The notes under the pieces: model-generated
Told to the model about the DNA's origin: nothing
Database searches by the model: none
What the model saw: the letters and a program-made list of their open reading frames with translations, nothing else
Origin: a virus
IMG/VR virus record: IMGVR_UViG_3300031673_012789
Reading direction: 5' to 3' (one strand)
DNA: 64,000 nt
Shown here: piece after piece, positions 17,705 through 21,140 of the stretch
Layout of the letters: the number at the start of each line of letters is the position of its first letter
Numbering within the stretch: position 1 is the stretch's first letter
Position numbers and translations under genes: made by a program

Positions 17705-19108
17705 TTACTTTCCATTATTTCCTGTTCCTTTTTTCACAATAGTTCCCCATCCTTCAACACCTCTTATATATTGCCAATTTCCTTTTACAGAAAACCATGC
17801 AATCATAGGATAAATAAGAGGTTCAACAAATGCAACAGCTAATAATTTAATTACATCCCTTTTTCTCTCATATTTATGGAATGTTAATTCTTCAAATAAT
17901 ACAGACCATGAAGACATAAATACAGCAAAAGCATAAATAAAGAGATATAATAATCCAAAGAATCCCCAATTAATTAAACCAGTTGCGGCTAAGTAAATAG
18001 TAAATCCAAATCCAACAAAAGCAAGAAGAGGTGCTAACCATTCAAAGAATAACCAAAATGGATATCCAAGTAATCCTAATTTTCCATATTTTTTATTTAA
18101 GAACATCACTTTATGTTTTCTAAGTGCGTACACTAGTCCTCTAGCCCACCTTGCTCTTTGGCTTTCTAAAGATTTATAATCAGAAGGAACTTCAGTCCAA
18201 CATAATGGGTCAGGAATATAAGTAACTTCATATTTTTCATCTTTTTCAGCCATGTATCTTCTCATACGAATAACCATTTCCATATCTTCTCCAATAGCTT
18301 TAGTATCATACCCTCCTGAATTAATAAGTATTTCCCTATCAAATAATCCCATTGCACCAGATATAAGAAGCAATCCATCTAATTGTGACCAAGCCATTCT
18401 ACCAAGTAAAAATGCCCTAGTATATTCAAGAGCTTGCCATCTCGGTAAAAATTTTTGTGGTAAATTAATTTTTTTGATAACACCATTTTCAACTTCACAT
18501 GAATTCATAATTCGAATTACACCACCAGTTCCAATAACTTTTTTGTCTTTTTCTTCAAGGAATGGCTTTACTAATTTAGTGATTGAATCAGGTTCTATCA
18601 CACAATCAGCATCCATAATCAAAACAAGGTCATTCCTACAAATATTGATACCTGCATTACTAGCATCAGCTTTACATCCACCATTAACTTTATCTACAAC
18701 AGTCAATTTTGAAAATTCCTTATTTCTTGATTTGTAAATTCCTTTTATTTTTTTACAAGGGATTCTATATTCAAAAAAGTAATTAGCTTTTGATAGCTTA
18801 AACGTATCTTTTAAGAGTTTAAATGTATCATCAGTAGACCCATCATTAACAATAATGACCTCAAAATTTCGATAATGTAATTTCATAAGTGTTTTAACAC
18901 TGTCTATAATGTTTGCACTTTCATTATAAGCTGGAGCAATAATAGATACTGATGGTGATAATGGTGAAGTTGCCACGGCATTGTAATCTACATAACTATT
19001 TTTTCTTAGGTAATTTCTTAATTTTTTAACCGAGAAATATCCTAGTACAAAATAACAAATAAAAATAACTAGTGTAAATAAAAACACAAAATTTATAAAG
19101 AACCACAT
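17705..19108 (-). CDS. family-2 processive glycosyltransferase (PgaC/IcaA/cellulose-synthase-like)
   Basis: IIVNDGSTDDT, DADCV and QRARWARG (QxxRW) motifs. N- and C-terminal TM helices. Confidence 0.7.
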   Translation of the reverse strand: MWFFINFVFLFTLVIFICYFVLGYFSVKKLRNYLRKNSYVDYNAVATSPLSPSVSIIAPAYNESANIIDSVKTLMKLHYRNFEVIIVNDGSTDDTFKLLKDTFKLSKANYFFEYRIPCKKIKGIYKSRNKEFSKLTVVDKVNGGCKADASNAGINICRNDLVLIMDADCVIEPDSITKLVKPFLEEKDKKVIGTGGVIRIMNSCEVENGVIKKINLPQKFLPRWQALEYTRAFLLGRMAWSQLDGLLLISGAMGLFDREILINSGGYDTKAIGEDMEMVIRMRRYMAEKDEKYEVTYIPDPLCWTEVPSDYKSLESQRARWARGLVYALRKHKVMFLNKKYGKLGLLGYPFWLFFEWLAPLLAFVGFGFTIYLAATGLINWGFFGLLYLFIYAFAVFMSSWSVLFEELTFHKYERKRDVIKLLAVAFVEPLIYPMIAWFSVKGNWQYIRGVEGWGTIVKKGTGNNGK

Positions 19109-19119
19109 AATATTATTTT

Positions 19120-20340
19120 TTAATTAATTTTTTTATCAAGTACATGCTTAATGATGATATTGTAATTTTTGTAATCAGAATCCATCATCTTTTTCAATTG
19201 AACATCACCAACTTCACCCATATTTTTAATTGCCTTAACACCTTCAATTTGAAGTTCTGTATCTTCTTCAATATCAACAACATTTTGAAGAAAGCGAATT
19301 GTTTTTGGGTTTGCTATTTTTCCTAAAGTTTTTATGATTTCTACTTTATTTTCGTATGGTTCTGTTTTGTATATTTTTTTCAAAGGAGAACACAATGGTT
19401 CAACATTTAAATCCCCTACTACTTCAATTGCTAACTTAACAACCTTTTCACTTGGATGATAAAGCATATTGTTTAAATCATCTATGGTTTTTAGTTGTTC
19501 ATATTCTCTCATCATTCTTAAACAAAACATACCTACACTATGATTATCAGAAACTAACCATCTTCCAAAATAAGGAGGAGTTATTTTTGATTCAACCATA
19601 AGCTCATGAAGAGTAATTTGTTCCCAAACTGAAAAAGGATGGGTCAAATGTTCTAAAAATGAAAAAGCATCTTCTACAGCTCCAGATAATCTTACCATTG
19701 CAATTTGAGCTTCCATTCTAAGAACATCATTATTAGAGTTGATATATTTCATCACCTTTTCATTATAGTCAATAATTTCAAGATGAGATAATTCTTTCAA
19801 TGCTTTAACTTTCTTATGCCATTTCCTGCTGTATAGCTTTTTCTTTGTATCATCAATTAAACCTAAATGAAAATATAATTTTCTTAGTTTTGCTAAAACA
19901 TCTTTAGGCATCATTAACGCTACATCAATTATTTGGTCAATTAATATGTTTCTTCTAAACTGGCTATTACATATCTTTTTAAATTCCACCTGAGTAATAA
20001 TTTTATCATCAACAGCATCTAATATCAATGTTTGATATTTTTCAGTTAATGAAGCTTTAATTTTAGCCCGTTTTTCCATTCTTCTTCTATTAATTAGAAC
20101 AAAAAGTAGAATTAAAACCATTGCAGAAAAACAAATTACAATTGAACCAATCAATAGGTTCATGAATGCAAAAGAAGTCCCGAGTATTACAATTTGTTTT
20201 AAAAATAGAGTTTCAGCTCCATGTCCTGTTACCGCATTCATAATAACAGGATTAAATTGTGTTTGCATAATGAAACTGCCAATAAATAGCAGCGTCATAA
20301 TAATAACAGGAATTAGTATTTTTATTTTATGTCTCATCAC
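19120..20340 (-). CDS. membrane protein with C-terminal HEAT/PBS-lyase-like repeats, putative synthase accessory subunit
   Basis: N-terminal TM helices. Repeated alpha-helical LxxLG..N motifs in the C-terminus. Adjacent to the GT2 synthase. Confidence 0.45.
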   Translation of the reverse strand: MMRHKIKILIPVIIMTLLFIGSFIMQTQFNPVIMNAVTGHGAETLFLKQIVILGTSFAFMNLLIGSIVICFSAMVLILLFVLINRRRMEKRAKIKASLTEKYQTLILDAVDDKIITQVEFKKICNSQFRRNILIDQIIDVALMMPKDVLAKLRKLYFHLGLIDDTKKKLYSRKWHKKVKALKELSHLEIIDYNEKVMKYINSNNDVLRMEAQIAMVRLSGAVEDAFSFLEHLTHPFSVWEQITLHELMVESKITPPYFGRWLVSDNHSVGMFCLRMMREYEQLKTIDDLNNMLYHPSEKVVKLAIEVVGDLNVEPLCSPLKKIYKTEPYENKVEIIKTLGKIANPKTIRFLQNVVDIEEDTELQIEGVKAIKNMGEVGDVQLKKMMDSDYKNYNIIIKHVLDKKIN

Positions 20341-21140
20341 TTATTAATATTTACAATTAATCCTACTCCAAATCCATATCTATTTCTCCACATATCAGGT
20401 TTATACTCCTCATACATGTAAGTTGCCGAACCACTTATTCTCATTCTATCTGCAAATATGTTACTAACATATCTTACACTTCCAGTATATGCAAATCTTC
20501 TATCTAAATCAGTTTCAATGATGAATGGTTCATCTTGAGCCGAACCGGCACTCACTCCAACTTCAAGGAAATTAATATCCTTAACAAACAATCGATATTT
20601 TAATGCATAGGTGGCCGTAATGTTAGGTTCTTTTAAATATAGGTATGTTTTTCCTTCAATCCAATGTCTACCAAAATATTTTTCTAAACCACCATTCACA
20701 AATACGGCATTACTTTCTGTAAATTGATAGTAGTTAATCCCTCCAGATACTAAAAATCCAGCACCTAATTTCTGCCAGAGTTCAAATATTATTCTATGGT
20801 TTGGGAACATATTATCAATGCCATAAGCATAATTTAACCAGAATGAAGTAGATTTGCTTTTACTTAAAGATTGCCAATAATCTAGTTCAAGCTGTACATT
20901 ATTCTGGTCTTTTATAACTTCGGAATATCTATATCCCAGGTTTACTTTCCCATAAATTGCGGTAAGATTCCCTTTATATCCAAAACCTGAATGAAAAATA
21001 TGAAAATTTACTGGAGATGGTTGCTGGTATATATCATTGTAATAACCAGTCAAGAATTGAAAATTCCCTTTATTCTCCTCTTGTGAAAAACCTGCTAATG
21101 AAAATATCATTAACAGGAGTATTAATAGAATTTTTCTCAT
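20337..21140 (-). CDS. outer-membrane beta-barrel protein (putative polysaccharide export porin)
   Basis: Signal peptide MRKILLILLLMIFSLAGFSQ. Alternating aromatic/Gly-rich beta-strand pattern. Confidence 0.45.
   Translation of the reverse strand: MRKILLILLLMIFSLAGFSQEENKGNFQFLTGYYNDIYQQPSPVNFHIFHSGFGYKGNLTAIYGKVNLGYRYSEVIKDQNNVQLELDYWQSLSKSKSTSFWLNYAYGIDNMFPNHRIIFELWQKLGAGFLVSGGINYYQFTESNAVFVNGGLEKYFGRHWIEGKTYLYLKEPNITATYALKYRLFVKDINFLEVGVSAGSAQDEPFIIETDLDRRFAYTGSVRYVSNIFADRMRISGSATYMYEEYKPDMWRNRYGFGVGLIVNINK

Follow-up and report, generated by a model that had tools for sequence, protein, structure and literature searches.

The IMG/VR virus record IMGVR_UViG_3300031673_012789 carries a putative exopolysaccharide secretion cassette of three genes. 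The stretch of DNA analysed, here called the window, has 64,000 nucleotides, a GC content of about 31% and all large open reading frames (ORFs) on one strand. According to the ORF listing, positions 17705–21140 of the minus strand are filled exactly by three co-directional ORFs. Gene 1 (21140..20337) codes for a YaiO-family outer-membrane beta-barrel of 267 amino acids. Gene 2 (20337..19120) codes for a HEAT-repeat inner-membrane protein of 405 amino acids, counted from an ATG; the listing gives an alternative GTG start 3 nt upstream. Gene 3 (19108..17705) codes for a putative membrane-embedded family-2 glycosyltransferase (GT2) of the processive type with 467 amino acids.

The genes are tightly packed. 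The stop codon of the barrel gene overlaps the start codon of the HEAT gene by one base (TGATG), and 11 nt separate the HEAT stop from the GT2 start. A preliminary description of the locus had read it as an operon without gaps that begins with the GT2. The close packing was confirmed, but the order was not: transcription proceeds from the barrel to the HEAT protein and the GT2 is the last gene.

Two near-identical modules bracket the cassette on the minus strand. On the 5′ side, the terminator scan detected a hairpin with T-tract and 16-mer at 21166..21206. The G+C-rich hairpin (21206–21182) ends the upstream cold-shock gene and is followed by the T-tract and the motif TTTTTGTTATATTAGA at 21181–21166. 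This motif includes TATATTAG, which has one mismatch to TAnnTTTG, the −7 box of Bacteroidota (consensus as given in PMC6847099 and PMC9723704), and lies 25 nt ahead of the barrel start codon. The equivalent position in the related phage loci L010, L012, L014 and L100 reads TATATTTG or TATATTGG, in agreement with this box. On the 3′ side, a near-identical hairpin (17682–17658) and the same 16-mer (17657–17642) form a module at 17642..17682, directly past the GT2 stop and ahead of the DenV gene. The 3′ module marks the end of the cassette, and the 5′ module is its probable boundary and promoter. Bracketed by these terminator- and promoter-like modules and preceded by a motif resembling the Bacteroidota −7 box, the three genes very probably form one transcription unit with a host-type promoter, which may be active early in infection.

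The 16-mer, TTTT(T/G)GTTATATTAGA, is a repeated, promoter-like element of the window. It has eight matches with at most two mismatches, against 0.48 expected, all on the minus strand (11291, 17642, 21166, 35707, 36903, 43249, 45064 and 62663). The sites are often located directly 3′ of a terminator hairpin; three sites instead share an upstream AAAAAGTTGCCCAAA-like box. The repeated 16-mer may represent a temporal class of phage promoters.

The family-2 glycosyltransferase

The GT2 matched the Pfam families Glycos_transf_2 and Glyco_tranf_2_3 (E about 1e-23), the latter being the profile suggested for it in advance, and also Glyco_trans_2_3 and Chitin_synth_2. The motifs D, DxD and QxxRW, previously noted by eye, are intact: NDGS with Asp89, DAD (166–168), GED (273–275) and QRARW (317–321) show no variation across 45 homologues from phages and bacteria. 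Hydropathy revealed hydrophobic segments on both sides of the catalytic domain, one at the N-terminus and three to four at the C-terminus. Residues 50–439 align to the cellulose synthase BcsA (4hg6) with an E value of 6e-7, spanning the catalytic and the transmembrane (TM) region. BcsA was the only solved membrane synthase matched by the GT2 sequence. Realignment with PgaC of Escherichia coli (25% identity, E 1e-26) retained QRARW opposite QRLRW, and DAD and GED opposite DGD and TED. An insertion of about 26 amino acids relative to PgaC is specific for the family.

A profile of the GT2 family was run on E. coli reference proteins. PgaC scored highest with 94.5 bits and is the best-scoring characterised relative, followed by YaiP (34.1), BcsA (19.3) and NfrB (8.1). 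The GT2 failed the PgaC_IcaA equivalog model TIGR03937, reaching 116.6 of the 422.3 bits required by the cut-off. Because PgaC is top-scoring, yet the equivalog cut-off is missed, the sequence places the GT2 as a processive-type synthase nearest to the poly-N-acetylglucosamine (PNAG) synthases but outside this group. The enzyme is predicted to act as synthase and also as translocon of the inner membrane. As a weak best guess, the polymer is beta-linked and contains N-acetylglucosamine.

Surface-glycan genes of phages are usually single modifying enzymes. In gtrABC modules, a phage-borne GT2 alters the surface glycan of the host, which can block superinfection. The GT2 of the cassette could likewise be a non-processive lipid-carrier glycosyltransferase that alters lipopolysaccharide, O-antigen or another surface glycan in a GtrB-like serotype conversion, the classical function of phage GT2s. 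Its best PHROG is the GtrB-like phrog_841 (3e-10), but this match covers residues 53–102 only, where the GT-A fold begins with its generic nucleotide-binding part. GtrB is non-processive, has about 310 amino acids, two C-terminal TM helices and no QxxRW motif, and works together with GtrA and GtrC. In contrast, the GT2 of the cassette has the invariant QRARW and GED, three to four predicted C-terminal TM segments and an alignment to BcsA that runs through the TM region. No GtrA or GtrC partner is present in the ORF listing; the partners are the barrel and the HEAT protein. These differences make a GtrB-like function very unlikely.

Partner proteins and the bacterial operon

The barrel protein exceeded the cut-offs of the YaiO family models, Pfam PF19413 (77.2 bits, cut-off 23.9) and TIGR04390 (72.3 bits, cut-off 32). 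A direct comparison of the phage barrel profile with E. coli YaiO, PgaA and NfrA (hhalign, hmmsearch) gave nothing significant; for YaiO, the assignment is therefore made via the family models only. An AlphaFold2 model with a predicted local distance difference test score of 87.6 has an N-terminal helix and 14 strands. A Sec signal peptide is indicated by a hydrophobic segment followed by an invariant Gln20 at the predicted cleavage site. Family profiles and model together bear out the earlier reading as a signal-peptide beta-barrel. In structure, the model comes closest to CymA and OmpG, which are sugar channels. The invariant or near-invariant residues number 55, and 28 of these are located on the predicted lumen face. 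The charge of the polymer was not readable from the lumen-facing residues, their net charge of about +4 being uninformative.

The phage barrel has no TPR domain. It does not have the architecture of the TPR-porin exporters PgaA, BcsC, PelB and NfrA, which combine periplasmic TPRs with a C-terminal 16-strand barrel. The YaiO family comprises 973 clusters in a set of 1.84 billion representative proteins. After a few short forms of the phage type, most clusters have an N-terminal extension of 120–190 amino acids before the barrel, which is the layout of these exporters, with TPRs ahead of a C-terminal porin.

Gene 2 was described beforehand as a membrane protein with HEAT-like repeats, in agreement with a HEAT_2 (PF13646) match of 31.2 bits above the cut-off of 27.7 and two N-terminal hydrophobic segments in the hydropathy plot. 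The predicted layout is two TM helices with a short periplasmic loop and a HEAT/alpha-solenoid at residues 117–401 approximately. The bacterial homologues have a periplasmic SPOR domain between TM1 and TM2, so the HEAT domain is predicted to be cytoplasmic. The SPOR domain is missing in the phage protein. The C-terminal motif YKNYNII..HVLD is conserved. The suggested kinship of this middle protein to PgaD or BcsB had to be abandoned: the HEAT protein is unrelated to either, and its profile did not match E. coli PgaD (E 0.061).

The profile of the HEAT protein had matches in 249 bacterial genomes of the genome contig collection. The best 80 loci were examined, all from uncultured Bacteroidales/Rikenellaceae. 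They contain an operon for a receiver-domain protein (120 amino acids), a TPR+YaiO protein (about 350), a SPOR+HEAT protein (up to 580) and a GT2 (about 470–495). This order is kept in all 67 loci with enough upstream sequence; the remaining 13 of the 80 are cut by contig ends. Housekeeping genes surround the operons, whose contigs reach up to 3.4 Mb. Each of the three phage genes has a direct homologue in the operon, in the same order and with overlapping stop and start codons. The identity to the nearest bacterial sequences is 62%–66% for the GT2, about 46% for the HEAT protein and 33%–37% for the barrel. The phage cassette has no receiver gene, its barrel protein is without the TPR part and its HEAT protein without the SPOR domain; homologues of these three were found neither in the window nor in the eight phage loci searched. 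On these sequence comparisons, the phage cassette is best described as a trimmed descendant of the four-gene Bacteroidales operon. Literature searches covered YaiO, HEAT proteins with synthase-dependent exopolysaccharides in Bacteroidetes, phage-encoded exopolysaccharides, jumbo phages and pgaC as auxiliary gene; neither the bacterial operon nor the phage cassette was described in the papers found.

The bacterial operon suggests a connection of the barrel and the HEAT protein to export. In bacteria, the barrel is fused to TPRs as in PgaA, BcsC, PelB and NfrA, and is always located beside this type of GT2. This argues against partner genes unrelated to export, a possibility raised in the preliminary description. 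Alternatively, the polymer may stay in the periplasm or the envelope, for example as a reinforcement of the infected cell, with YaiO serving either as a Wzi-like anchor at the surface or as a channel for the uptake of oligosaccharides. A barrel of 14 strands without TPRs, unlike the 16-strand exporters, agrees with a retained polymer. The strict adjacency and translational coupling of the barrel gene to the synthase genes in phages and bacteria, the exporter-like TPR and C-terminal barrel architecture of the bacterial form and the lining of the lumen by conserved residues do not, and retention of the polymer is considered quite unlikely.

The proposed likeness to PgaCD–PgaA or Bcs modules holds for the functional logic and, as homology, for the GT2 only; it does not extend to the HEAT protein and the 14-strand YaiO barrel. 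PgaABCD/IcaADBC systems also encode in one operon a membrane GT2 with D, DxD, ED and QxxRW motifs, a membrane partner and an outer-membrane porin. The Pga/Ica GT2 needs a small membrane partner, PgaD; the phage partner is a 405-amino acid HEAT solenoid. PgaA has 16 strands and TPRs, whereas the phage porin has the 14-strand YaiO barrel without TPRs. The phage cassette, bounded by terminators, contains neither a PgaB deacetylase nor a cyclic di-GMP (c-di-GMP) module; the bacterial parent operon has the receiver-domain protein instead of the latter. BcsA–BcsB–BcsC resembles the cassette in the combination of a processive GT2 with translocon function and, further out, a TPR-barrel exporter, the latter being present in the bacterial parent operon. 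The phage cassette is without PilZ domain and BcsB, its barrel belongs to another family with another strand number, and E. coli BcsA reached only the aforementioned 19.3 bits with the phage GT2 family profile.

The E. coli K-12 yai cluster (locus L096, 380069–384616) comprises the co-directional genes yaiS, yaiP, yaiX and yaiO. YaiS is a deacetylase, YaiP a multi-TM GT2 with DAD, ED and EWRRW motifs, and yaiX codes for an acyltransferase and is split by IS2. The cluster looks like a cryptic polysaccharide locus, and we know of no function for it. In common with the cassette, it has a barrel-only YaiO (257 amino acids) beside a multi-TM GT2 with DAD, ED and ExxRW. YaiP is a distant relative (5e-11), a HEAT protein is missing, and the deacetylase and the acyltransferase are extra.

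Distribution among phages and proposed function

The location of the cassette inside a phage element, as assumed from the start, was confirmed. The window encodes a T4-type clamp loader (phrog_168, 5e-52), an exonuclease, DenV, a tRNA-His guanylyltransferase and a nicotinamide mononucleotide adenylyltransferase (NMNAT), and carries tRNA genes. Nine diverged phage lineages had the complete set, always in the order barrel, HEAT, GT2: the window, L007/8, L010/11, L012 (a 345-kb contig), L014, L100, L101, L102 and L103/4. In L014, an IMG/VR contig of 405,016 bp, 7 kb separate the cassette from gp23 and a prohead protease of the T4 type, and in L102 it adjoins a T4-type topoisomerase. Bacteroidota are pointed to as hosts by the type of the promoter and the type IX secretion sorting domain of a protein encoded in the neighbourhood.

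The barrels of the phage lineages share down to 34% identical amino acids with the barrel of the window. Ratios of non-synonymous to synonymous substitutions (dN/dS) between lineages are 0.08–0.23 for all three genes; the cassette is under purifying selection. For each of the three proteins, phage and bacterial sequences are split with a bootstrap support of 100/100. The split is in line with one ancient transfer of the whole unit and vertical inheritance in the phages since then.

Searches in 50,697 GenBank phage records yielded no megablast match for the 9 kb around the cassette and no tblastn match for the barrel and HEAT proteins. The GT2 found distant GT2s only, the best with 37% identity on an unrelated 11.8-kb contig. 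All cassettes are known from metagenomic assemblies only, and a GT2 with 62%–66% identity to bacterial genes may raise the suspicion that host DNA was captured recently or that the assembly is chimeric, and that the cassette has no role in the phage. This explanation is largely refuted and extremely unlikely. Besides the number of diverged lineages, the 100/100 monophyly of the phage clade and dN/dS values below 0.25, conserved synteny contradicts it: L103/4 share the neighbourhood of the window, that is thioredoxin, TROVE and cold-shock genes and the cassette, at a barrel identity of 44%, while the flanks differ in the other lineages. The identical cassette was also assembled independently from several samples, and its GC content is that of the flanks.

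Probably, the three genes constitute a minimal synthase-dependent exopolysaccharide secretion machine that is expressed in the infected cell by a large T4-like Bacteroidota phage. In a first step, the inner-membrane GT2, with its GT-A domain in the cytoplasm, would polymerise a nucleotide sugar processively and thread the chain through a channel of its own TM helices, like BcsA and PgaC. The HEAT protein would be anchored beside the GT2 by its two TM helices and, in a second step, its cytoplasmic solenoid would serve as obligatory partner or activator of the synthase, a role filled by PgaD/IcaD or a PilZ module in other systems. Finally, the Sec-exported YaiO barrel would insert into the outer membrane and let the chain out. 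In the bacterial operon, the receiver protein is the probable switch of the system, which TPR and SPOR domains probably tie to the periplasm and the cell wall. Since these regulatory and anchoring parts are lost, the phage version probably runs unregulated and coats the infected cell in polymer. A benefit to the phage may arise from masking of receptors against other phages or its own progeny, from clumping, or from protection of the infected cell during the long cycle of a giant phage. Receptor masking and a modified biofilm had been suggested in the preliminary description and are speculative. PADLOC defence-system models had no match to any of the three proteins.

Several observations weigh against a secretion machine. 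The phage cassette has no periplasmic component, neither TPRs nor an analogue of BcsB, PgaB or AlgK, which leaves the passage of the chain across the periplasm unexplained. The closest structures of the barrel are uptake porins and not 16-strand polysaccharide exporters. The HEAT domain resembles only generic solenoids and its role was thus assigned from gene linkage alone. Sugar and linkage are not readable from the sequence, and the score of the best equivalog model for the GT2, PgaC_IcaA, is far below the cut-off. The promoter was assigned by its motif only, and the window contains no virion gene.

The missing periplasmic component may also indicate that the cassette plugs into a homologous system of the host and overrides it. 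In mixed complexes of the phage GT2, HEAT protein or barrel with the TPR-YaiO, SPOR-HEAT or receiver protein of the host, it could force polymer synthesis without a signal or act as a dominant-negative block. Bacteroidales have the full homologous operon with a GT2 of 62%–66% identity, and exactly the regulatory and anchoring modules are missing from the phage copies. On the other hand, purifying selection maintains the whole set in nine lineages, with a complete barrel and a catalytically intact GT2 among the three parts, and the bypass of a regulator would not need that much. The low identities of the phage HEAT (about 46%) and YaiO proteins (33%–37%) to their best bacterial counterparts also make mixed complexes less likely. 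Such a takeover of a host system is considered unlikely.

A self-contained secretion machine would have a counterpart in the hyaluronan and chitin synthases of chloroviruses. These are early genes, and their fibres cover the infected algae with a debated benefit to the virus (PMC5408694). Both cases involve a large DNA virus and a membrane GT2 of the processive type; the infected algal cell extrudes polysaccharide fibres, and the phage host would do likewise. The chlorovirus host is a eukaryotic alga and the synthase gene is not in an operon with export partners. The phage polymer must cross a Gram-negative envelope, for which the cassette provides its own outer-membrane pore and a partner protein.

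The new element is the partner set of a synthase-dependent secretion system, carried in trimmed form by giant phages. Tentatively, a wider proposal can be made: giant T4-like Bacteroidales phages may wrap the infected cell early with a self-contained, regulator-free trans-envelope machine, as the counterpart of the chlorovirus synthases, and thereby expose an unrecognised exopolysaccharide family with a YaiO porin, a HEAT co-subunit and control by a receiver-domain phosphorelay in place of c-di-GMP. Giant phages that have diverged widely would then maintain by selection a complete secretion pathway with an outer-membrane channel of its own. If the pathway is active, infected Bacteroidales in sediments, digesters and guts would be re-coated by the virus, affecting superinfection, aggregation and carbon flow. 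The cassette also draws attention to a recurrent, unstudied operon of Bacteroidales with four genes and a probable role in exopolysaccharide synthesis. The three-gene, regulator-free form in the phages is a handy start for a reconstitution and for the role of a HEAT solenoid in a glycan synthase.

Other genes of the window and of related phages

The features of the window described below are all on the minus strand. Envelope proteins are encoded beyond the cassette: a TonB-dependent receptor of 653 amino acids with Plug and barrel domains (5773–7734), a cadherin-like protein of 638 amino acids with the type IX secretion C-terminal sorting domain (28772–30688) and two small signal-peptide or lipoprotein ORFs (15607–16083 and 16304–16726). 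Together with the cassette, they suggest a broad remodelling of the host envelope. An 817-amino acid protein with major-vault-protein shoulder and repeat domains (30771–33224; MVP_shoulder 5e-27, Vault_3 1e-12) and a flotillin/SPFH protein of 517 amino acids (40752–42305; Band_7 3.5e-27, Flot) are both unusual for a phage.

A set for NAD+ salvage and synthesis (3915–4892, 8559–9734, 12296–12943 and 13320–14204) comprises a NadR-like NMN adenylyltransferase/kinase, a nicotinate phosphoribosyltransferase, an isochorismatase-family (nicotinamidase-like) protein and an NAD synthetase. Genes of the RNA-repair type (21488–23191, 52869–53966 and 54524–55279) code for a TROVE/Ro60-like protein with a C-terminal vWA-like part, an RlaP-type nucleotidyltransferase and the tRNA-His guanylyltransferase. 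The TROVE/Ro60-like gene is located directly upstream of the gene neighbouring the cassette. A Y RNA was not detected in an Rfam scan of the window at gathering threshold.

The window has 17 tRNA genes. Fifteen form an array at 36077–38825 (ARAGORN), in which Rfam gave three weak additional tRNA-like matches. A tRNA-Arg is located at 76–159. The tRNA at 26482–26555 has the anticodon CTA of an amber suppressor (labelled ‘Pyl’ by ARAGORN). Amber suppression would not affect the cassette because its stop codons are TGA, TAA and TAA. A full-length GOLLD RNA (RF02032, model positions 1–416) at 34385–34868 scored 162.1 bits against a gathering score of 150. It has an embedded tRNA-like match (34726–34795) and lies in an ORF-poor stretch of higher GC content beside the tRNA array.

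Some related phages have an extra gene 3′ of the GT2, which is absent from the window. It codes for a 435-amino acid lipoprotein with LVIVD repeats in L010 (12396–13703), L011 (12707–14014) and L012 (13512–14825), for a putative lipoprotein of 129 amino acids in L014 (13444–13833), where it overlaps the GT2 stop, and for a protein of 421 amino acids in L102 (6016–7281). The extra genes closely trail the GT2, and no terminator intervenes in L010, L012 and L014, the loci checked. They may be lineage-specific periplasmic accessories. Near the cassette, related phages also have TnpB/Cas12f-like genes, in L008 (16130–17347) and L010 (19433–20566), and several GIY-YIG/NUMOD3 homing endonucleases, for example in L008 (2173–3027 and 4114–4842).

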